A stretch of DNA of 64,000 nt from a virus (taxonomy: Duplodnaviria; Caudoviricetes). The stretch lies in IMG/VR virus record IMGVR_UViG_3300042282_000085. One strand, given 5' to 3'. The notes beneath the pieces are model-generated. The model saw nothing but the letters and a program-made list of their open reading frames with translations. It was not told where the DNA came from and made no database searches. Positions 1-63,496 of the stretch are shown in pieces (the first letter of the stretch is position 1; every line of letters starts with the position of its first letter). The position numbers and the translations under genes were made by a program.

Positions 1-451
1 TTCTAGAGAGAGCCGCATCCAGTGTAATGCTCTGAACGCCCTTTACAGTCGGTAGCTGAAATCGACCCTGCGCCCCTGTGTCTGCAGGGGTACCCAGTGT
101 TTGACCCTGTAATTCCGCTACCTCAAAACACCGTACGTAGTTACGAATAGCGCCATCATTTAACAGTGCCGTAAAGCAGCAGGTACCAATAGTGCCATCC
201 TCACTGGCCGATAAGGAAATGTGTTCCCGCATAATGCGGTTACGATCAAATCCCAATCCGTAGGGGTACAGTGTAACCGTACCCATGTCCGCCGTACGCC
301 CCATAGCGATGTGGACTCCACCCTCTTCGATAGGGTGAATTACAATACCTGCCCCTGGGTGAATCATAGACGACCCCCCATTGGCCGGACGAGGTACCTC
401 ACATACGCTGAGGTAGTTAAGGTATTCCTCGGTATCATCAAAGAGCTTCAT
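1..451 (-). CDS. Hypothetical protein, partial (runs off the left edge of the window)
   Basis: ATG at 451 overlaps the TGA of the upstream HTH gene (ATGA). The frame MKLFDDTEEYLNYLSV... stays open to the window edge. Not in the ORF track because no stop lies inside the window. Confidence 0.65.
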   Translation of the reverse strand, partial: MKLFDDTEEYLNYLSVCEVPRPANGGSSMIHPGAGIVIHPIEEGGVHIAMGRTADMGTVTLYPYGLGFDRNRIMREHISLSASEDGTIGTCCFTALLNDGAIRNYVRCFEVAELQGQTLGTPADTGAQGRFQLPTVKGVQSITLDAALSR

Positions 452-777
452 ACGCCACCTCCTTTAGGTACGTTACGATCACTGCGCCTAGTCTTCGGGT
501 CCTCCAGCCGCGCCAGTAATTCTGTAACGGCCTTTTCACTCACCCGTACAGTAAACCCACCGTCTTTTAATTCCTTGCTGAAGGTGACCCCCATGTCCGC
601 CAGTGACTCCTCCATGAGTTCAACTGTAGACAGTCTCATCTCCATCTCCAGTATCTCATTGCGTGCAATCGTAGATTTAGCCAGCCCTAATAAGTCTGCA
701 AACTCTTGCTGACCCATGGCGACAGCACTTCGCCCTACCCGCATCATTAGTGCGGCTCGTGCAGCAGAATGATTCAT
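448..777 (-). CDS. XRE-family helix-turn-helix DNA-binding protein
   Basis: MRVGRSAVAMGQQEFADLLGLAKSTIARNE matches the XRE/Cro HTH pattern; strong RBS AGGAGGAGG upstream. Confidence 0.8.
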   Translation of the reverse strand: MNHSAARAALMMRVGRSAVAMGQQEFADLLGLAKSTIARNEILEMEMRLSTVELMEESLADMGVTFSKELKDGGFTVRVSEKAVTELLARLEDPKTRRSDRNVPKGGGV

Positions 778-812
778 GTTAGTCCTCCTCCTACCTATAG
801 TAAACGCAGCCC

Positions 813-1007
813 TTAAGAGGCTGCGTCCTTTATTGCATAGTCTTCTTCTTCCAGCCAGTTAGCCAGTACACCAACATCTACCTCCGGTAGACTCGATGCC
901 CCGTTAAACTCTCCAGGATCCGTATACGAATGGATACCGTAATGTGGGCGGTAATACTCAAACGCATCGTGTTGCTGTTTCGAGAGCGCTATCATGCCTG
1001 ATAGTTG
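813..1007 (-). CDS. nvRNAP beta-prime N-terminal subunit (phiKZ gp55-56.1-like), exon 3
   Basis: Begins CAA CTA TCA GGC (QLSG) immediately after the intron-terminal G at 1008. It completes NADFDGD-QL and ends ...VLANWLEEEDYAIKDAAS, resembling the gp56.1 segment. Confidence 0.85.
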   Translation of the reverse strand, partial: QLSGMIALSKQQHDAFEYYRPHYGIHSYTDPGEFNGASSLPEVDVGVLANWLEEEDYAIKDAAS

Positions 1008-1412
1008 CGAGGTCTTCACCTAAGTTCGTTAGACTTAAGCAGTTCTCTTATGAACTTCTCCGGGTGTTACCCGGACGTCGAGGTCATATCTTCACCCTCC
1101 ATATAGAAGGGGGCTCCCATTTCTGCCCACTTGGGCTCTACACCGTGGTTACCGGTTGACCGTCGGACCTGGACCCTAGCCTACTTCACAGTAGTCCTTA
1201 GGTCATTGGCTGCGTGGTTGAACATTGTCACGCGCCTTAGGCTTACTATTGCCATAGCGCATCTTGTCTATTTTTTCTACTTTCGTAACCTTCACACTTG
1301 GCCTTTCGACCTATGTTGTGGTTAGACAAGCTTTAGCCCGTTCCCGCAATTAGAGAGCGATCACTATACAGTTACCCGTATAGCGGACACATGTCTTTAG
1401 TTAAAGACGTTT
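1008..1412 (-). mobile_element. Group I intron, no ORF (405 nt), second intron of the nvRNAP beta-prime gene
   Basis: The 5' exon ends in U (GAU) and the intron ends in G. P-element-like CUAAUUGCGGGAA near 1342-1354. R/S elements CCGACGGUCA (~1167-1176) and AAGAUAUGACCU (1081-1092) give a covaried P7 (GGUCA/UGACC). The P2 hairpin resembles that of the phuZ intron. Confidence 0.85.
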
Positions 1413-1424
1413 ATCACCATCGAA
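1413..1424 (-). CDS. 12-nt micro-exon (exon 2) of nvRNAP beta-prime, encoding FDGD
   Basis: TTC GAT GGT GAT, preceded by G (end of intron 1) and followed in frame by AAA CGT CTT TAA. It supplies the missing part of NADFDGD between exon 1 (...PNAD) and exon 3 (QL...). Confidence 0.85.
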
Positions 1425-3633
1425 CCTTTTGTCCACTGTAGGCGCTACACTACAGCCGGTGTGCTCAGACACCCGCCCCTGCTTTCACAGGGGAGCAGAC
1501 CATATCACCTTCCTTCCACAGTGTGGTTAGGAAGCCTCCCGTTTGGCAGGCGCTTGCCCGCTACTCCGCGCTACCGGATGGCCGTTGAACTCACTCCGTG
1601 TTACCCACAGGTAATGTAGGAGCTTCGCTGCGTCGGTTGCCCAATCTCTAAGGGTTTTTACCATACCTCTCACTTCCATTACTGGGAGAGGGATTACCCT
1701 ACCTTTCGGTGGGTAAGGGGTACCTTAGAGCTGTAAAGGGGTTTCCCGCAGTTAGAGAGGATCCCTTAAACATCTCTGCCTAAGGGGACTTTGTTTAACA
1801 AGTTATTAATTTCAGTGATCAGGCTACGGCAGTGCCGGTGACATTAGCCTCTTCACTGAAGACCCACTTAGTAGCCTTAACGGTGAGTCCATTTACCCTA
1901 TATACGCCGTCGTGCTGGGACAGTGCGTCGCGCAATCGCTTTAGCTCCATGTTGACCGCAGCGGCTACATCCTCTAACCGTAGATACAGTGTACGATTAC
2001 CACTGTCATCGGCAGTCACCGAGTACGCATATGTAATGCTGTATGCGTCCCGGTACTTGATTAACTCTTCGATAGTCGGCCAGGGCCTATAATCGTTCTG
2101 TACCCTAACTAACCACCTTGACCTTACCAGCCTGCTGTTAATTCTTGCTGCCGTTATGCTGGGCCTCTTGGCCCCACATATGGTTGAGGCCTGACTCGTA
2201 TCCAGGTTGCAGAACTCTTGCCCAGTTACGTAGTCCTTAACCTTAAGGGTTAAAGGTTTACCGGTCCTAGCCTTTGTAATGTACTCTAGGTCTATTTCCG
2301 GGAAGGGATACTTCTCCAACTCGTCCGTGTATCTGAATACATACCCTTTAAGGTCACAATCCCTTCGTTTCCTGGCATTTGTAGCTATCTGATATTTAGA
2401 TATCTTAAGACGCTCTGCGGCCTCATTGACGCTATCGAAATCATGTCGCCGCTGTGTCTTAACAGAAAGTGCAACTACCGGCCGAGCTCTACCCCTAGTG
2501 TATGTGGATAGCTCCTCCAAGGAGGGCCACTCCCTATCGTCTAGAAGCTTTTTAACTAGGTACCCGTTAATTGGGTAGAAGTTATCCCGTCTTAGGGAGG
2601 CTGAAAGAGTTCCAGGTTGCACACCAATTGCCGCGCCCAGCGCTATGCAGTTTGGTCGGACGATCTCTGTGCCGTTGGAGAGGTCTAACGCCACAACGTC
2701 ATTTGAGCATTTGACCGTGGCGTCGGCTATCTCGCTCACCGTAGGTAGGGCGTCTTTGTTGCCAATGAAGCTAAAGGCATGTCCGTTAATGGCGTGCTTT
2801 CTACCATAACGGCAAATGTCCCTCACAGTGGCCGGCAACACGTTATGTGCCCTCGCAGCGCTTGCGACGCTTGGGTATATGGTAATCGAACCACTACATG
2901 CGTTTATGGCAACGACCTCGATGCCAAGATGCGAGGTACTTTCGACCCTATCGACCCTAGCCAACTCCGTCTTTGTGAGTTTCTCTGAAAGGTATCTGAA
3001 AACGTAGCGTCCAAACCTAATTTTAGGTTCGCCATTTACCCACCTGTGGATGTTCTCTTGCCCAACGCCGTTGTCCCTAGCGGCGGCGTTTAAGGTTACC
3101 CATTCACGGGTACTGCCGTCCACGAGATCGTGCCGTATGATAGCCCTATTGTCATCCCTTAAGCCATTTTGATACGCATGGTGGGAGTTGTATCCCCAGG
3201 TACACCATTCTAGGTTAAATGGACTGTTGTTAAATTTATCGCCATCCTTGTGATTTACAACTACATGCGTGGAACACTCCCTTTTTAGGAAGGTCAAAGC
3301 CACAAGTCTATGGACCGCAACGCTCTTCTTCCGACCGGCTTTTTCATCAAACGTCTGAACAGTGGAGTATCCCCTCTTACCATTGGAATTACACTTTCTA
3401 CCCAACGGTTCCCCGTTAATGGCAGATATCGCCTCCCCGACGCCGTTAACTAGCACATCAGGATGGTTAGGTACAACGTAGTATCCAGGGAATTCTTTAG
3501 ACTCCTCGGGAGTTCTAAACCCTCTAGATACTTCATTGGATAGGTTTTCCATTATCTTACACCTCATTTCATGTCACTGACCGTCGATATAAGATAACGG
3601 CACAACGTATTAATTAACTTGTTAAACTAAAAA
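1425..3633 (-). mobile_element. Group I intron (2209 nt) carrying an HNH homing endonuclease gene in its 5' (P1 loop) region
   Basis: Junctions GAU|UUUUUAG and AAAAGG|UUC. A perfect 13-bp inverted repeat (1793-1805 / 3615-3627) loops out the ORF. Core motifs CUAACUGCGGGAAAC, UUCAACGGCCA and GAUAUGGUCU lie between 1497 and 1760. Confidence 0.9.
1819..3567 (-). CDS. Intron-encoded HNH homing endonuclease with repeated NUMOD1/IENR1-like DNA-binding modules
   Basis: VHRLVALTF...VNHKDGDKFNNSPFNLEWCT HNH motif, followed by several F/Y-x-S-x2-AA helix-turn-helix repeats. Confidence 0.92.
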   Translation of the reverse strand: MRCKIMENLSNEVSRGFRTPEESKEFPGYYVVPNHPDVLVNGVGEAISAINGEPLGRKCNSNGKRGYSTVQTFDEKAGRKKSVAVHRLVALTFLKRECSTHVVVNHKDGDKFNNSPFNLEWCTWGYNSHHAYQNGLRDDNRAIIRHDLVDGSTREWVTLNAAARDNGVGQENIHRWVNGEPKIRFGRYVFRYLSEKLTKTELARVDRVESTSHLGIEVVAINACSGSITIYPSVASAARAHNVLPATVRDICRYGRKHAINGHAFSFIGNKDALPTVSEIADATVKCSNDVVALDLSNGTEIVRPNCIALGAAIGVQPGTLSASLRRDNFYPINGYLVKKLLDDREWPSLEELSTYTRGRARPVVALSVKTQRRHDFDSVNEAAERLKISKYQIATNARKRRDCDLKGYVFRYTDELEKYPFPEIDLEYITKARTGKPLTLKVKDYVTGQEFCNLDTSQASTICGAKRPSITAARINSRLVRSRWLVRVQNDYRPWPTIEELIKYRDAYSITYAYSVTADDSGNRTLYLRLEDVAAAVNMELKRLRDALSQHDGVYRVNGLTVKATKWVFSEEANVTGTAVA

Positions 3634-4869
3634 ATCTGCGTTTGGTGCACGGGTACATAGCACTGATAGACTGCTAACATTATCAGAAATATCGTTTATA
3701 TGGAGGGCTTGGATACTTCCCCTAGCAAGGGTCGGATACCTCACGAACAGACAGCGTACGCCTTTGCCACCCGGGGCCTCTTGGAAGATCTCATAGAGTA
3801 GCTCTTCTAGCAAGGCATCACGTGTGATGGTGTGTCGGTCGATATACTCCCAGGCATCTCGATGGGTATAGCCCTTCTTATAGAGTTTATTCAACAAGTG
3901 GACTTTAAACATCGTAACCGCTTGAGAGTACGGGATCTTTATTTGCTCATAGTCGTGTACCCCTGACTCCGACACAATTACTGACCGGAATGCAAACGGT
4001 GTGCGGCCACCAAAGACGGTGTTACGGAGGAGACCTTCCTTTTTGGAGAAAGGATCACCAAACATGTCACTGTAGTAGCTAGCCAATGAGTTAATGATGG
4101 AGGTAATCTTGCCTTCTAAGCGGCGTACGTTGGCATAGGTCTCCTCATCGATAGAAGTAATAGTACGGGCCGCGTCTAACGCTTCACGAATAGCCGTATC
4201 GGCATAGGTACCTGTAGCCGTGTTCTCCATGACAAATGCAATCTTATTTGGCATGGGGAGGTGTTGTGGGAAGAAGCGGTCCCGGTAGACGGTGAAGAAC
4301 GCCTGCATCGACTCGCGCTCATGTCGGGGCATTAGCGTTAGAATGGCTTCGGCTATGTCATCGAAATGTGCAATGAAATTATTCAGGCCTCTGGGTATCC
4401 CCGTTTTCATTAACCGGTGCATAATCATCGAGGCTTTCTTATTTGACTCAGGGGGATCCTCCATGAGTGGGGCACAAAACCATTGAAGTACGTTAAACCG
4501 GGATCCGGTCATGAGGGGAGAGAGAATCATCCAGAGCATGGGGTTTACCAGGCTGTGGACGCCTTGTGGTGCACGGAACCAGACGTTCGAGACGATCTCT
4601 TGATCACCGGCGGCTTCTACACGGGTATTGCACTTAGGACAGAGCTGCCCTAGGTTATAGCCATAGGAGAGGTGTCCGCAGCTGCAGGAGGGGATAGAGT
4701 CCAGTGTATCGGTGTGATCATAGGTCGTCATGATCATAGCGTTCAATGCATCCCGCTCTTCCTTCGTTCGGGCCGGAACATCATTCAGGATGATCGGAGT
4801 GAAGGGTAGAGAGTGGAAGGCACGGTCATGGTCATGGATCGAGAACGCAATCATTTCATTCTCATGCAT
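3634..4869 (-). CDS. nvRNAP beta-prime N-terminal subunit (phiKZ gp55-like), exon 1; spliced product about 480 aa
   Basis: Zn ribbon CSCG...CPKC, KEGLLRNTVFGGR, RSVI, RYPTL and terminal APNAD motifs of beta-prime; adjacent to the chimallin-like gene as in phiKZ. Confidence 0.92.
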
Positions 4870-4879
4870 GGGTGACTCC

Positions 4880-5086
4880 TTAAAGGTTAAAGGTAGGGTC
4901 TACGTAGCGGATGAACGTGTGGAGATCGGCGTCTCTGACGAAGAGTGTGGGATCCCCTATAGGGCGTGGGTAGGTATTGGTATATCGGTTAGTGTAGGAC
5001 TCCTGACTGCGAAAGGGCAAAACGATGGTAGCGAGGGTGGTTTTATGTCCCCACCTGAGATAGTAGTAGGTATTCTTTTTATCCAT
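4880..5086 (-). CDS. Small hypothetical protein
   Basis: 68-aa ORF with an AGGAG RBS, filling the gap between the chimallin terminator and the RNAP gene. Confidence 0.55.
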   Translation of the reverse strand: MDKKNTYYYLRWGHKTTLATIVLPFRSQESYTNRYTNTYPRPIGDPTLFVRDADLHTFIRYVDPTFNL

Positions 5087-5155
5087 GGTCTTCTCCTATA
5101 CGAAATAGACATAGGGGGTTAAAGTTTATTTCTACACTAAAAGACATAAAAAAAT

Positions 5156-5179
5156 AAGGAGACCCCGAAGGGCCTCCTT
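5156..5179 (-). terminator. Intrinsic terminator after the chimallin gene
   Basis: GC-rich stem with a UUCG-type loop, followed by a U-tract on the minus strand. Confidence 0.75.
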
Positions 5180-5193
5180 AATCCTGGACGTGC

Positions 5194-7149
5194 TTACTGA
5201 CCGTAGGGCTTGTTGAATACGGGGTTAATGTAGCTACCGCGCATCTGCTCACCCATCGGGCCGGTCTGGCCGTACGGAGACTGGTAGAAACCAGCCGCGT
5301 TGTAGGTGCCACCGAAGTTCGGGTCAATACCCTGACGCTGCATGCCCTGATCGTAGGCGACCATGTCATCGGAGATGATACGGACGTCATTGTTGATCAG
5401 TGCCTGTACCAGACAGGGAATGAAGTTCGGTGAGAAGTACACGCGAGTGGCCATGCCAGTGATGTTGCAGTCACCGGCAACGGACATCAGGCAGCGACGA
5501 CGGTCTGACAGGTTAATGTTGTTAGCAATGCCCGGAGTCATTGCAGCGGTAGCCTGAGCTACGAACTGCAGGTCCTTCGGAGACGCAGACAGCATGGTCA
5601 GATAGTCGATGGTACGCAGGTCACGAGCGCGACCATCCTTATCGGTGTAGGTACCGAGGTGAACGGTCACAGTGTCGTGGTGCATCACTGCCGCCTTAGC
5701 GTTGCCGTTGTTAGCCTGTGCCCAGACCTGAGAGAAGGCACCACCGGTCAACGCATCACATTCAGCGATGATGTCATCATTGGCGCCAGAGCGCGGGTTC
5801 TGTGCTGCCGCAATGAATACGGACTGCACCCACTCCAGACGACCACCCTGCTCCACATCCAGTGCAACCGCTACGTTCTGCGTACACCACTTAGTGGCCA
5901 TGCTGAACGGAGTTTCCTTGCCTTCTTCCGGCGCCTTGTTAAGGGATACCGATTCAACCGGCACCTTACCCAACGCTTCCGGACCACGGCCGTAGGGATC
6001 GTATTCCAGACCCAACATGCCAATGGACTGCTTCTGTACCTTCTGACCCGGGTAGGTTTCGAAGACACGGACCCAACCGTGATTAGCGGTCATGGCCAGA
6101 GTTGCAACCAGACCCATCAGCTGGGTACGCAGATCCTCAATGGAGCGACCAGAGTTCGCCAGACCGGCGACTTCAGTCAGTACCACGACCGGCATGTAAC
6201 CAGGCTTGGGTACCTGAGGCTGCTGCAGCTGAGCGTACGGGCTAGTCTGCTGCTGGGTAATAATGTTGAAATCCACATAACCAGACACTTCAGCCAGGTT
6301 ATGCTCCTGAGTACCAGTATGAACCTGGTACATGTCACCCTGCTTCTGATTAACGCGGGTGAGTTTGATGGAGGTATTGAAGTCGGCTGCAATTGGTTGA
6401 CCAATCCGGTTCAGGCGACATTCGCCCGGAGTGACTGTAGTGCGCTGACGCACTGCAACCTGTGGGTTGCGCAGGTGCTTCGCGTTAACACGTCCCACAC
6501 CCTGACCACCTGCGGCATCAATGATGGCCAGATGTGCAGAGTCAAAGTACACTCGAGTCACCTCTGCTGAGGAGAGATCCGCTGCCTTGGGCACCACACA
6601 GTGACCGATATGAACCACTTCGGCCGGATTCACTTTGTACTGGTTAGCCACGAAGGTGGATACCACTTCACGCAGCTTCTCATCGAAACAGCGGGTTGTG
6701 GGGCGATCAGTGATCACGTCCTTCTGACCAGAATAATCGCGGATGGTTTCCACGATCGGTTCCAGCTTAGAGGACATCATGCCCTCAATCAAGAGGTCAT
6801 ATACGACAACCTGCTTGGTGGCGCTGGATACTGCACACAGTGCCAGCACCGGCAAGTAGAGTTGCTGGCTGGAAACGGAAACCACCTCCAACTTCAACAT
6901 GTTAGAAATCTCTGGCAGCGCTGCCAGACGTTTCATTTCTTCACTGAAGGCGGCGAAGCCTTCAGTATCCATGCCACCACTCAGGGTGGCTACACCCAGA
7001 CCCTCGAACGGGTCCGCGCCGTCATACTCGTTGTAACGAGTATTATTGGTATACCCCTGCTGTGGTTGTGGCTGCTGAGTCTGCTGTGCAGCCTGCGGCT
7101 GTGCAGTCTGGTCAGCAGTTTTGTTCGGGTTGTTGTCATTCACACGCAT
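5194..7149 (-). CDS. chmA: Chimallin-like phage nuclear shell protein (phiKZ gp54-like)
   Basis: 651 aa with a Gln-rich flexible N-terminus and low-complexity C-terminus. It lies between the gp52-like and gp55-like genes (conserved synteny), has an early promoter upstream and strongly biased codon usage. No alignment was run. Confidence 0.75.
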   Translation of the reverse strand: MRVNDNNPNKTADQTAQPQAAQQTQQPQPQQGYTNNTRYNEYDGADPFEGLGVATLSGGMDTEGFAAFSEEMKRLAALPEISNMLKLEVVSVSSQQLYLPVLALCAVSSATKQVVVYDLLIEGMMSSKLEPIVETIRDYSGQKDVITDRPTTRCFDEKLREVVSTFVANQYKVNPAEVVHIGHCVVPKAADLSSAEVTRVYFDSAHLAIIDAAGGQGVGRVNAKHLRNPQVAVRQRTTVTPGECRLNRIGQPIAADFNTSIKLTRVNQKQGDMYQVHTGTQEHNLAEVSGYVDFNIITQQQTSPYAQLQQPQVPKPGYMPVVVLTEVAGLANSGRSIEDLRTQLMGLVATLAMTANHGWVRVFETYPGQKVQKQSIGMLGLEYDPYGRGPEALGKVPVESVSLNKAPEEGKETPFSMATKWCTQNVAVALDVEQGGRLEWVQSVFIAAAQNPRSGANDDIIAECDALTGGAFSQVWAQANNGNAKAAVMHHDTVTVHLGTYTDKDGRARDLRTIDYLTMLSASPKDLQFVAQATAAMTPGIANNINLSDRRRCLMSVAGDCNITGMATRVYFSPNFIPCLVQALINNDVRIISDDMVAYDQGMQRQGIDPNFGGTYNAAGFYQSPYGQTGPMGEQMRGSYINPVFNKPYGQ

Positions 7150-15262: not shown

Positions 15263-16914
15263 CGTTATCTTCAACACTGTTCGTTAATCAGTGTCCGCAA
15301 CATTACTTGCAGCTCCCACCTTTCAATGGGAGACGAGACTATATCAATATCCTAATTTTGAATAGGTTTATTTAAGCGCACTATGTGAATGTTTGGGTCA
15401 TTCAGTTGCTTATAAACATATTCTAGACTGAAGTATTTACGTTTATCTGCTATACCAAGCTCATCTAGAAGAGCCTCGTCGCCCTGGACGAGTTTAGTGG
15501 TACTTCCATTGGTTACCCTATACATTCGCATAGGGGCCTTACATTTAAAGTAACTGGAGAGTATGGTCTCCTCAGTAAAGGGATACCACGCATACCTATG
15601 AAGGCTAGATCTTAAACCCAGCCCGTGTATGAGTGTAGTTCCCTTACGCCCTTTACATTCGCCAAGTTTAGTCGAAACGTCGCGCTGATCGTAGTTTCCA
15701 CCGTAATGCTCATTAACAAATTTCGCCACAGCTTCTGTACTGTAAAACTTTGTAGTCGTCTTTGTGTAATAGTCGTAGAGCTCGTAGTACTGTTTTTTGG
15801 CCCGATATGGTACCAACTGATAGCTCTCCCTAATTGCCATGGCCTCTTCTTTACATACGTCCGTTGCAGTTGGGAGATCATCCTCGTTGAGTGCAACGTA
15901 GTATCCGGCAATATATGCGCACTTTCTAATCTTAAATATATTAGAAAGTGATCGGATACCGGTAAAGTAAGCAGCTATAAAGTAACTAGGGTATACTAGG
16001 CGCTCTCCGTTTACACAATCCAATACAAATACGTTGGTGCCGAATTTAGCACTGTTCGAGGAACAAAACAGTGTCTGCTCGTCTTCTAATTTAACTATCC
16101 ATCGACCGAGCAAGGGTGCGTCTTTAGATCGACGTATCAACGGTATAAGGTTATTGGCATGTATGTTAATGTAATTAGCAGCACTCTTGATTGAGTTGAA
16201 CGTTAATGTCTGTCCGGACTCTAGGTCTTCCACTAACGTTCTATTCGCATTCGCATTTAATCCGTTGGCAACCGCATGTATGTGGTTCTTATGTGCCGTT
16301 ACCCACTCTAGGTTGTCGGCGCGGGGATTTAGTTTATTACCATCAATATGGTTGACCTGTAGATTGGCGTCCCAACCCGGTACAAACTCTTCTGCCACCA
16401 ATCGATGGATGGTACTATATCTTTTGCCGCCGTCATCGTTGAGTATGGATATTTTCAAATACCCGTATTTATCGATGCCCTGCTTCAAGAGTTTGCCAGT
16501 TCTAACATTTCTAACTCGGCCAGTGTCACTGACTTCATAATTAGAACACCCTGTTATTTTCTTCCACTTTTCCAATAATGCGTTCTCCATATTCAGGTCG
16601 CCCAATCGACCTTTGGTTTACACTATTCAGTCATTATTAGGATAGTCCCCGTTTCGATTTAAGGATCAATGTCCACCCACTTGGGCCCTACACGCTGGTC
16701 AATGCGTTAGTCGTTGGACGTTCCCCCTAGCCTGTCTCCCGACAGTCCTTAGGGGCTTCGCTGCTGATTGTCCAATTGCAGATATTTTCAAGCATTCACG
16801 TTTGCCTTTTCAGACTACGTTGTAGCTACCTGCACTTAAGGAGTTTCCAGCAATTAAGGGACGTGTCACCATACAGTTACCTGTACGGCGGGCTTATGTC
16901 ACAACGTGACGTTA
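15263..16914 (-). mobile_element. Group I intron (1652 nt) in phuZ carrying a NUMOD4-HNH endonuclease gene
   Basis: Junctions GGU|UAAC and AACG|AGU restore GG-SGS. Core motifs UUAAUUGCUGGAAAC, CCAACGACUAA (~16707-16717) and GAUAUAGUCU (~15336-15345). The ORF lies between the R and S elements (P8 region). Confidence 0.92.
15352..16605 (-). CDS. Intron-encoded NUMOD4-HNH homing endonuclease
   Basis: EKWKKI...YEVSDTGRVR (NUMOD4) and IHRLVA...VNHIDGNKLNPRADNLEWVT (HNH). Confidence 0.92.
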   Translation of the reverse strand: MGDLNMENALLEKWKKITGCSNYEVSDTGRVRNVRTGKLLKQGIDKYGYLKISILNDDGGKRYSTIHRLVAEEFVPGWDANLQVNHIDGNKLNPRADNLEWVTAHKNHIHAVANGLNANANRTLVEDLESGQTLTFNSIKSAANYINIHANNLIPLIRRSKDAPLLGRWIVKLEDEQTLFCSSNSAKFGTNVFVLDCVNGERLVYPSYFIAAYFTGIRSLSNIFKIRKCAYIAGYYVALNEDDLPTATDVCKEEAMAIRESYQLVPYRAKKQYYELYDYYTKTTTKFYSTEAVAKFVNEHYGGNYDQRDVSTKLGECKGRKGTTLIHGLGLRSSLHRYAWYPFTEETILSSYFKCKAPMRMYRVTNGSTTKLVQGDEALLDELGIADKRKYFSLEYVYKQLNDPNIHIVRLNKPIQN

Positions 16915-17220
16915 ACCACCTGAGGCAGAGAACATAACCAGGTTGTAATCAGACGGTTTGTGCTCCACCAACATGTTGTTGACGTGATCGTTCACGCCTT
17001 CGAAGGCTTGCTGGCGCTTCTTACCAGCACCCCGCAGACCCGGTACCAAGAACGTCTTAATATCGCCACCCAGATCGCGGATGTTTGAATCCGAGGTGTC
17101 CAGTGCGTATTTGCGCACAGTGGGATAGTACGGCACCTCAGTATCCTGAGGCAGACGTACAAAATCTTTGAGCAGGTTAATACCTGCACCGCCGCAGGCA
17201 TAGATTGACATTGTGGACAT
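16915..17220 (-). CDS. phuZ: PhuZ phage tubulin, exon 1; spliced product about 353 aa
   Basis: IYACGGAGIN, ALDTSDSN, GAGKKR and FSASGG tubulin/FtsZ GTPase motifs. Confidence 0.92.
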
Positions 17221-29543: not shown

Positions 29544-29628
29544 TGGTGCGGAATGGGAGACTCGAACTCCCACAGCTTGCGCCACTGGATCCTAAATCCA
29601 GCGTGTCTACCAATTCCACCAATTCCGC
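29544..29628 (-). tRNA. trnL: tRNA-Leu (anticodon TAG), 85 nt, CCA encoded
   Basis: Acceptor GCGGAAT/ATTCCGC-ACCA, D-loop GGAATTGGTAGAC, anticodon arm CTGGA-TTTAGGA-TCCAG, long variable arm, GTTCGAG T-loop. Confidence 0.95.
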
Positions 29629-60775: not shown

Positions 60776-61883
60776 TTATTTACGATACACGTCCACTACA
60801 TGTCGGTTCAGTGCCCGTAACGCTTTGTTCGTGGTCCCTACAATGGTGCAGCTATAGAGTATGCGGTTTGCTACGCTCTGATACCCAAAGATTGCGTCTA
60901 ACGGCTCACCCGAGGCGGTCTCATTACGTCCCTCCATGACACGACCTACGATGGTTTTCAGCGCGTTATCGAATACCGCTTTATCCCCTACCGCTGCGGT
61001 AATGTCATGGTCCATGTAGAACGTAATGGCCAAGGTATTAGGCGTTAGCTTCTGACCCCCGACAAAGGTAGGCTCGTTTACTTCACCGGTTGCAGCCGGT
61101 AAGCTCCCTTTATAGCTAACCTCTCGCTTACGCTGACGTGTATCCGCCTTCACAATCTCAGCTAAACTCGGATGCATGTCGTCAGGGTTTCCAAAATACA
61201 CCACCTCACGACGCGTCACCTTACCAACAAACCCGGCCTTAGGTGTTTGGTTTGCAAGTTTAGACAGTCCTAGCAGTGCATCGTCCCCTTGACTGAGTGT
61301 GGCTAACTCAGCCTCCTCGATCACACACAGCGGTACGTCTAGGTCAACCTCTTCTCCGACACCCACAATGTTAGAGACAGCCTGATCGAAACGCACCAAT
61401 ACCGTCTTCATTTTACTGATAGGTGTGGACAGACGTTGTGAAAGTGCAGGGGAAATTGCACACCCATCCTCCAAGGTATCCGCATTCTCCATAAAGGCTA
61501 CCTTCGCCATTACCCCACCCTTCATCGAGACTCCGTTTGGATTTAACCGGTCCCGTTGGAAGTAATGTGTATTCCACGTAACCGCGTACCCTTCTGCTAC
61601 ACTATCCCCTTCCTGTAAGTCCGTTACAATATCATGAGGTAGGACAGCACCCGCGGCTTTACCGTGTCGGATACCCAAGGGCAGGGTAACCGTCTCGCCG
61701 TCCTCATATTGAACCGTTATAGAGTCACGACTCACCTTACTGACCTTACCAGGTTTACTGGCAATATACGCAAAGTTATCCCCACAACGATCAGCAATGA
61801 CCTGCTCATACCCGGTGCGCACAGGCGTAAGCGTGGCATCTTTCGCCGATACCATAGACGATTGCTGTACTGATCCCAAGTTT
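60776..61883 (-). CDS. Virion RNA polymerase beta subunit (phiKZ gp178-like), 3' exon
   Basis: Resumes A AAC TTG GGA after the intron-terminal G; contains the beta motifs VRTGYE, TLEDGCAIS, VGDKAVF...KTIV and SVANRI. Confidence 0.9.
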
Positions 61884-63496
61884 CCTTCTGTCCACTACAG
61901 TCGCGACTCTGTAGCCGGTGTGCTCAGACACCCGCCCTGGGCTTTCCCCAGGGAGCAGACTATATCTTCGCCCTTACTCTTAAGGACGGACGCCGTTTGG
62001 AGCCACCACTGACTTGTGGCCCTACACCGAAGCAACTCGGTTAGTCGTTGAACTCATCCCTTAGCCATAGCCTTAGGGACTTCGCTGCGTCGGTTACCCC
62101 ACACGTTAACCTTTTTACCGTATCGAAGTGGTTAGCTTCGCCCCCATGGGGTGTAATATACACCGGTCACTGTTTCCAGCATGGGTTGGTAGTTAACGCT
62201 CAAAGGGCTTTCCCGCAATTAGACGTCGTACCCAGTACCTTCTGTTACTGGGGCGCACTAAAGTTCTTTAAAGTAATATCCGTAATATTCCACATTTGGA
62301 TGCTTAAGCCCACGACGTACATCATTGTAACTGATGCCTAGCTCCCTAACACAGTCACCCATACACGCAAAGTATCTCTGCTTCCCAGTATCCACGGCAG
62401 TCACCAGAAATGGTCGACCTCGCATCCGCTTAGCCCAATCTACGAAGGGGTCGTCTACAGTGCGCCATGGGTTAGGGTCAGACTTTCGTTTAACCAGAGC
62501 GTAGCGGTCACCAAGTTTAAAAACTGGCTGCTTGTCACCTTTGGATAAGTGTGTTGTCATCGTACCAGAAGTCACCTCTAACGCCTCAGCGGCGGCATTC
62601 TGACTCGAGTACTCCACTACTTCACCCGTGCATAGCCATTTTACTAGCACTTCATTGCCATGGTATACCGGATGTTCGCCTCTACTCACTGCAAGCTTAA
62701 CCTCACCGACTTTAGCTTTCCGCCAACTCTCCCTCTCATAAATGCCGAGGTGTGCAGAGACGTCTACCCATCCAACAAATTCACGCTCTCGCCTGAACTG
62801 AAGGCCATCTTTAAATAAAAGCTCTAGTGGCGCAGCTAAGCGTTGCTGGATGGTGAAAACAGAAAGACCTGTTGCAGCGGCAGCGTCAACGACTTTATTG
62901 AACCGCCCCTCTTCACCTGTTCTTAGGTTTCTCCAGAGTACAGCCGTTGTAGGCTTCTTACCTAAGTCGGCAACCTCAACAAGGGTACCGTTGTGGTTCC
63001 AAGGGTTCGTTTTTCTGACACCTCTAGCCATTGTACTGGGGTGAATGCCAATCGCTTTGGACGCTGAGACTCTAGTGGGGTATATCTTTACAGTGCCGTC
63101 GGGGAACGTTACCTTTGTTTCCTGGCCATGGGGAGTTAAACCGGTGTCAATGGCATGTTGTCGGTTCTCAGATCCACTACACCATTCTAAATTTGTGTAG
63201 TGGTTATTTGACTTCACGCCATCAATGTGGTTAACTTGTGTCTTGGTAGTAGGATCAGGATTGTCCACAAATGCCAGCGCGACTAATTTGTGAACTTTAA
63301 TCCCCGAAACTGACTCGTATCCACGTGACGTTACTGGGGTTCTAAACTTTCCCCTAGCCACGTCGTAGACCCTGCCATCCGGATAAATGCGGAAATTTGG
63401 ATATTCTTTTAAGACTTTAAATTCGGTTTCCATTGTCCATGACTCATGTTGTTAATACATACCATACACAGTCATAGTGACAATTTAACCTATCGT
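61884..63496 (-). mobile_element. Group I intron (1613 nt) in the vRNAP beta gene with an HNH gene in the P1 loop
   Basis: Junctions CGCGU|ACG and AAGG|AAAC restore DPKRV-NLGSVQQS. IGS GUGCGC (62253-62258) pairs with exon GCGCGU. Core motifs CUAAUUGCGGGAAAG, UUCAACGACUAA and AAGAUAUAGUCU. Confidence 0.92.
62258..63433 (-). CDS. Intron-encoded HNH homing endonuclease
   Basis: VHKLVALAFV...VNHIDGVKSNNHYTNLEWCS plus NUMOD1-like repeats. Confidence 0.92.
   Translation of the reverse strand: METEFKVLKEYPNFRIYPDGRVYDVARGKFRTPVTSRGYESVSGIKVHKLVALAFVDNPDPTTKTQVNHIDGVKSNNHYTNLEWCSGSENRQHAIDTGLTPHGQETKVTFPDGTVKIYPTRVSASKAIGIHPSTMARGVRKTNPWNHNGTLVEVADLGKKPTTAVLWRNLRTGEEGRFNKVVDAAAATGLSVFTIQQRLAAPLELLFKDGLQFRREREFVGWVDVSAHLGIYERESWRKAKVGEVKLAVSRGEHPVYHGNEVLVKWLCTGEVVEYSSQNAAAEALEVTSGTMTTHLSKGDKQPVFKLGDRYALVKRKSDPNPWRTVDDPFVDWAKRMRGRPFLVTAVDTGKQRYFACMGDCVRELGISYNDVRRGLKHPNVEYYGYYFKEL

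Follow-up and report, generated by a model that had tools for sequence, protein, structure and literature searches.

Very short exons between group I introns have been described in two settings. Phage Twort orf142 carries three group I introns, with a 23-nucleotide (nt) exon between two IA2 introns and exon skipping (Landthaler and Shub 1999, as recounted in PMC10136302). The same account describes two group I introns around a 34-nt exon in the 23S rRNA of Coxiella burnetii, again with documented skipping (Hicks et al. 2011, via PMC10136302). Introns of phage phiKZ are known in gp55/gp56, gp72 and gp179/180, as given in PMC11512511 with citation of Ceyssens 2014. In PhiPA3, an HNH group I intron follows the conserved catalytic aspartates of gp210, a virion RNA polymerase (RNAP) beta subunit gene, and gives PhiPA3 a competitive edge over phiKZ (Birkholz et al. 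2024, PMC11620839; review PMC12908238). Here we describe a locus at positions 813-4869 of IMG/VR record IMGVR_UViG_3300042282_000085, the 64,000-nt stretch of Caudoviricetes DNA analyzed here and referred to as the window. Judged from its sequence, the gene for the beta-prime N-terminal subunit of the non-virion RNA polymerase (nvRNAP), a homologue of phiKZ gp55, very probably contains two different group I introns whose insertion sites are only 12 nt apart. The arrangement is a dense variant of a known mobile element and not a new mechanism.

The phiKZ gp55/gp56/gp56.1 locus (7OGP chain A) shares with the window the same gene, its synteny after the shell gene and a group I intron with an HNH open reading frame (ORF) within the codons for NADFDGD. 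An earlier note on this DNA had correctly stated that phiKZ gp55-56.1 is split by one intron in this region; that intron scores 75.6 bits with the Rfam model RF00028, but it follows the Asn codon (exon CCTAAT, intron ending in ACG, exon GCTGAT), which places it 6 nt upstream of the first site in the window, and phiKZ has no micro-exon. Twort orf142 resembles the window in having tandem IA-type phage introns around a very short exon, with skipping possible. The window exon differs in being only 12 nt, about half as long, and in encoding the catalytic residues of an essential polymerase; its introns are also only about 63% identical to each other, and one carries an HNH gene. The Coxiella locus likewise has two nearby group I introns of different subtypes with a short exon between them, but it lies in a bacterial rRNA gene and its 34-nt exon is non-coding, whereas the window exon encodes a catalytic motif. 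PhiPA3 gp210 offers the parallel of a chimallivirus with an HNH group I intron at the catalytic aspartates of a phage RNAP subunit. It differs in concerning another subunit and a single intron, and a competitive function, demonstrated for PhiPA3, is conjectural for the window. Our literature search found no paper that reports micro-exons within the NADFDGD coding sequence of a phage polymerase gene.

Gene layout and spliced reading

The active-site codons of the polymerase subunit gene sit on a 12-nt exon between two group I introns on the minus strand. In gene order, the features are as follows.

3634-4869, minus strand: exon 1, 412 codons up to ...TRAPNAD, of the phiKZ gp55 homologue (N-terminal beta-prime subunit of the nvRNAP)
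1425-3633, minus strand: intron 1, group I, 2209 nt, with an endonuclease ORF in the P1 loop; RF00028 52.2 bits; last nucleotide G at 1425
1413-1424, minus strand: micro-exon TTCGATGGTGAT, 12 nt, encoding FDGD with the second and third catalytic Asp; assigned from sequence and PHROG 2987 positions 419-422
1008-1412, minus strand: intron 2, group I, IA-like with P7.1/P7.2-type hairpins, 405 nt, without an ORF; last nucleotide G at 1008
813-1007, minus strand: exon 3, 64 codons plus stop, beginning QLSGMIALSKQQ (QLSG); PHROG 2987 positions 423-477

Exon 1 ends CCA AAC GCA GAT, with GAT terminating at 3634. Read without splicing, TTCGATGGTGAT runs directly and in frame into AAA CGT CTT TAA, and CAA CTA TCA GGC stands directly after the terminal G of intron 2. 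U is the last nucleotide of each 5' exon, and G that of each intron. All coordinates and sequence statements of the earlier note, these termini included, were verified on the minus strand. ORF calling recovers just a truncated frame of 415 amino acids, which runs three codons into intron 1, and one of 68 amino acids with a GTG start, so that the four-codon exon is missed, as the earlier note had proposed.

The double-spliced reading is 1443 nt long and encodes 480 amino acids with one stop, at the end. Its NADFDGDQLSG region aligned without gaps to intron-less homologues (P0003, P0009, P0013, P0018, P0019 and P0023), in agreement with the NADFDGDQL protein of about 480 residues expected from the note, and exon 3 is collinear with the tails of P0003, P0009 and P0013. 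Only this reading contains an intact NADFDGD metal-binding motif. The predicted protein includes the peptide APNADFDGDQLSG, and GCAGATTTCGATGGTGATCAACTATC would be the sequence expected in spliced reads.

PHROG 2987, the profile of the phiKZ gp55 family (labelled 'RNA polymerase beta subunit'), covers exon 1 at positions 2-418 (E 5.8e-118); its match to exon 3 begins after exactly four further positions, which would be filled by the FDGD of the micro-exon. Against PDB 7ogp_A, in which PHIKZ055 is fused to PHIKZ056.1, exon 1 aligned at E 6.1e-63 and the alignment stops exactly at NAD. Exon 3 alone, too short a query, drew only chance matches in PDB (interferon gamma, E 0.13). By tblastn, 289 phage records match the gp55-family subunit. 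Together, PHROG 2987, 7ogp_A and tblastn establish full-length homology to the chimallivirus nvRNAP beta-prime N-terminal subunit. The highest protein identity to any isolated phage was 36%, and a near-identity DNA search with 813-4869 matched none of 50,697 phage records.

Intron 1 and the micro-exon both begin with UU, so shifts of 1-2 nt in the splice sites would be indistinguishable from the mature mRNA sequence alone. We set the splice positions at 3634/1424 on the basis of the intron's terminal G and of the U.G pair that P1 forms. No other combination of a U-ending exon and a G-ending intron gives an in-frame motif. A single 2.6-kb intron (3633-1008) was also rejected as the main reading: it would delete FDGD, and a complete core is present in each of the two elements. 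If exon 1 is joined directly to exon 3, the reading frame is kept and the product, of 476 amino acids, lacks two of the three Mg-binding aspartates.

In our preferred reading, each intron follows a GAU Asp codon of NADFDGD, and its P1 pairs this GAU with a GUC guide and has a U.G pair at the splice site. The sequence shows that a full-length, catalytically competent subunit of 480 residues requires splicing by both ribozymes and retention of the 12-nt exon. Both introns may have been acquired by homing or recombination, and the ORF-less intron 2 could spread by co-conversion when the neighboring HNH enzyme cuts an intron-less allele.

The two introns

Intron 1 exceeded the gathering score of RF00028 (50 bits) at 52.2 bits, with a full-length model match at 1809-1476. 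When its 5' end was cofolded with the sequence that follows the ORF, P1 emerged as GAUUUU/AAAGUC with U3634.G at the splice site. A 13-bp extension prolongs this P1 and closes the ORF loop, which locates the endonuclease ORF in the P1 loop; by inspection, the extension covaries in the related loci L001 and L002. The core is homologous to same-site introns by nhmmer in L005 (E 1e-103), L002 (E 2e-64) and L001 (E 8e-56), whose exon 1 products are 95, 64 and 99% identical, respectively, to that of the window.

1819-3567, minus strand: HNH/NUMOD homing-endonuclease gene of intron 1, 582 amino acids from the first ATG; PHROG 59 HNH endonuclease, E 1.4e-34

The second ATG of this gene, at 3552, has a better Shine-Dalgarno sequence (GAGG). 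Pfam matches were marginal, with HNH_3 at 24.0 bits (cut-off 24.8) and an I-HmuI NUMOD-like domain at 25.4 bits (cut-off 27). From its sequence, the ORF qualifies as an HNH homing endonuclease with an HNH domain and NUMOD-type modules, for which cleavage is predicted. The same-site intron of L001 (7237-9369) has a ribozyme core similar to that of intron 1, but its 5' segment is unrelated and its HNH ORF, of 568 amino acids, is a different one; this comparison points to swapping of endonuclease genes inside one intron. The L001 contig terminates before the intron 2 site.

Intron 2 was placed among group I introns by relatives and by covariation. Sensitive blastn recovered annotated or known phage group I introns, including those of Clostridium phage D-1873/c-st and Twort-like staphylococcal phages. 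The nhmmer family of intron 2 comprised both introns of L004, the introns of L006 and L049 at the first site, intron c of L046 and others. We aligned eight sequences over 532 columns (alignment A2) and combined the RNAalifold structure with a hand-added P7 pseudoknot, for 75 pairs in total. In A2, 88.6% of cells were paired, versus 32-43% with partners slid, and 59 of the 75 pairs showed compensatory change on both sides; none of 500 shuffles reached the observed values. Intron 2 of the window itself forms 70 of the 75 consensus pairs. Compensatory changes were found across the core helices P2-P9, including the P3/P7 pseudoknot, and two hairpins between P7 and P3' look like P7.1/P7.2 of subgroup IA. 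P1 starts with U1413.G, A-U and G-C, includes a conserved GUCC element and continues into a 6-bp hairpin with a 4-nt loop. Thus a group I fold exists for 1008-1412, P7 included, and the earlier view that both elements are group I introns holds, through the RF00028 match for intron 1 and through this covariation-supported fold for intron 2. The ribozyme cores of the two introns are only about 63% identical, and the 'single large ribozyme' route proposed for Twort should therefore be disfavored here.

Several observations weigh against two functional introns around a retained micro-exon. The covariance-model search suggested in the earlier note put intron 1 above the gathering score and intron 2, at 20.6 bits (E 0.079 on 8 kb), far under it. 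The exon part of each P1 spans only about 3 bp, P10 of intron 1 is weak (2 bp), and by inspection intron 2 has no P10; splicing fidelity is thus not guaranteed on a 12-nt exon with three GAU triplets inside 15 nt. Exact scans found the doubly spliced junction neither in JGI metagenome contigs nor in IMG/VR, and the exon 2-exon 3 junction was not found in JGI metagenome contigs. In addition, GTP-dependent self-splicing of both introns is predicted from sequence, and the homing and hitchhiking mechanism is proposed by analogy. A further exact scan did not find the unspliced micro-exon context in IMG/VR, and the protein database held no near-identical 480-residue product such as a spliced RNA contig would give.

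The low score of intron 2 appears to reflect the model. Its RF00028 alignment nonetheless displays P3, P4, P6, P8 and the J8/7 element GAAGAUAUG, and other clear relatives also fall under the threshold, namely both introns of L004 and those of L006 and L049. Rfam gave no match at all on L004, though two introns are evident there by homology and structure. RF00028 therefore seems to under-score this subfamily.

Taken at face value, the low score, the short exon pairing in P1 and the weak or absent P10 would fit a gene in decay, in which intron 2 or the pair missplices and the locus is a pseudogene or yields mainly an exon-skipped, catalytically dead protein. The in-frame product of 476 residues would accommodate such an outcome, and precedents exist in the skipping that PMC10136302 recounts for Twort orf142 (23-nt exon) and Coxiella 23S rRNA (34-nt exon). 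Retention of 70 of 75 family pairs by the window's own intron 2 runs counter to decay, as does the comparison with relatives.

Relatives, decay and assembly

Among close relatives, L002 and L005 carry a single intron after NAD, lack intron 2 and have a contiguous FDGDQLSG. Across exons 2 and 3, the window and L005 differ at 17 positions, all of them synonymous and seven within the first 21 nt, and the exon 3 products are 100% identical. Two introns are arranged in the same way in the more distant L004 (56% identity, from another sample), whose micro-exon TATGACGGCGAT encodes YDGD; both of its introns contain ORFs, and its exon 3 begins VLSGYIALSKDQ. Since the micro-exon DNA of L004 differs while [F/Y]DGD coding is conserved, selection appears to act on the micro-exon.

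This evidence makes decay improbable: changes in the micro-exon and exon 3 relative to L005 are all synonymous, independent phages keep the same layout with [F/Y]DGD coding, and the locus is identical in a second sample, with an identical HNH protein present on 10 contigs. The subunit is, moreover, a core chimallivirus gene. Two introns around a coding micro-exon remain our preferred reading.

Exon 1 of the window and L005 are 87.5% identical in DNA, and 38 of their 155 differences fall in the last 103 nt, versus 7-20 per 103 nt elsewhere. Such divergence near the insertion sites would be the pattern left by co-conversion tracts around homing sites. JGI samples 3300042255, 3300042276 and 3300042277 contain this phage or relatives of it. 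L055, from sample 3300042277, is 100% identical over window positions 340-4141, a block that takes in the micro-exon and the introns on either side; just downstream of it, over 2-339, 27 positions differ. The sharp boundary suggests recent recombination between phage variants.

L055 also bears on the origin of the assembly. Given a metagenome source and close relatives with a single intron (L005, L002), a variant with an intron after NAD might have been merged in silico with one carrying an intron after FDGD. Such a join would need to fall in the 12-nt overlap, and L055, in another JGI sample, carries the identical run from exon 1 through both introns to exon 3 despite its 27 single-nucleotide differences just downstream. 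The same layout also occurs in the unrelated assemblies L004 and L046 and, as read here, in the isolated phage Goslar. We take this independent, identical assembly to exclude a chimera, an explanation to which we give hardly any credence.

The gene neighborhood fits a nucleus-forming jumbo phage.

5194-7149, minus strand: upstream neighbor, chimallin-like nuclear shell gene; its counterpart in L001, L002, L003 and L004 carries PF25677 Chimallin_Phikzvirus

The order of shell gene and polymerase gene matches phiKZ gp54-gp55, and a chimallin-like neighbor in phiKZ-like order indicates a Chimalliviridae context. By extrapolation from phiKZ, middle and late transcription may depend on this polymerase.

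Insertion sites and meaning of the locus

We surveyed 48 IMG/VR loci plus other contigs. Most surveyed genes are uninterrupted at the motif. Where introns occur, they occupy at least seven distinct sites across relatives within about 35 nt:

after N: phiKZ
after NAD: the window, L002, L005, L006, L013, L045, L049, L004, L046, L038
after FD: L014
after FDG: L043, L031, L038
after FDGD: the window, L004, L046, L003
within the F codon, after NADF-TT: Goslar intron 1
after FDGDA: Goslar intron 2
before PNAD or FNAD: L038, L046

The arrangement in the window is accordingly not unique, and related phages show the same or denser layouts. Among more distant phages, L046 (8208-9361) has three tandem RF00028 matches (83.6, 58.6 and 64.5 bits) with micro-exons that we read as 11 and 12 nt, the latter identical to that of the window. 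L038 (8132-9652) has four (79.1, 87.7, 68.5 and 68.4 bits), with micro-exons read as encoding PNAD (12 nt) and FDG (9 nt). All introns of L046 and L038 lie above the Rfam threshold, and L031 is another relative with the same or a denser layout. Both sites in the window follow GAU, and the intron family shares a GUC(C) guide, so related introns can occupy either site.

An isolated phage may show the same phenomenon. We read the gp247 locus of Escherichia phage Goslar (NC_048170) as two introns around a 13-nt micro-exon, CGACGGTGACGCT, within NADFDGDAL; in the locus L054 (reverse complement, ~4751-6545), joining the exons would restore NADFDGDALNTT. Goslar differs from the window in its insertion sites, after NADF-TT and after GCT, and in the place of its HNH ORF, which follows the first ribozyme core. 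In Rfam, the second Goslar intron reaches only 16.7 bits. The Goslar record carries a single Intron_gpI annotation, and introns go unmentioned in the genome paper.

Three further features were noted elsewhere in the window, all on the minus strand. A group I intron at 61883-63492 (RF00028 67.2 bits at 61935-62285; HNH ORF 62258-63433) splits a large RNAP beta-type gene whose exon pieces match PHROG 3148 at positions 887-1054 and 1057-1422. The 3' end of this intron, GGACAGAAGG, resembles that of intron 1, and the same intron family thus seems to be present in a second polymerase gene. A third above-threshold group I intron lies at 16393-16945 (RF00028 53.5 bits), and a tRNA gene at 29547-29628 (RF00005 59.3 bits).

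Stacked introns might be kept because they benefit the phage: occupied sites would destroy the targets of rival endonucleases, the polymerase gene of relatives infecting the same cell would suffer damage from the HNH enzyme, and splicing might time polymerase production. The competitive advantage over phiKZ given by the PhiPA3 intron HNH in an RNAP gene (PMC11620839), the clustering of at least seven insertion sites within about 35 nt and the further introns of the window, including an HNH intron in a virion-RNAP beta gene, are in line with a benefit. The pile-up is accounted for just as well by selfish homing into a strongly conserved target, and intron 2 has no endonuclease; we therefore consider phage benefit doubtful. 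More speculatively still in scope, and with similarly low confidence, the approximately 35 nt encoding (P)NADFDGD(A) could be a contested homing hot-spot, where an IA-type family with a minimal GAU/GUC guide fills neighboring sites, stacks with exons of 9-13 nt protect the gene and arm the phage, and inclusion of the micro-exon serves as a checkpoint on the middle/late polymerase. Our preferred reading, two different group I introns within 12 nt of one another, holds whether or not the stack is of use to the phage.

For annotation, the consequence is that gene callers truncate a core polymerase subunit at NAD and miss a four-codon exon, so that jumbo-phage annotations and catalogues of 'intact' RNAPs are wrong here. 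For splicing, the same 12 nt have to serve one ribozyme as its 3' exon and the following ribozyme as its 5' exon. The shortest natural case that we found in print, that of Twort, is about twice as long (23 nt); the exon thus bounds the minimal exon context for group I splicing, and the locus is a natural system for the study of exon skipping. Goslar is a culturable relative in which the micro-exon phenomenon is accessible. An intron endonuclease decides competition between nucleus-forming phages (PMC11620839). Polymorphism for intron presence or absence, together with divergence at the insertion sites, gives a view of homing, and possibly of the hitchhiking of ORF-less introns, in this group of phages.

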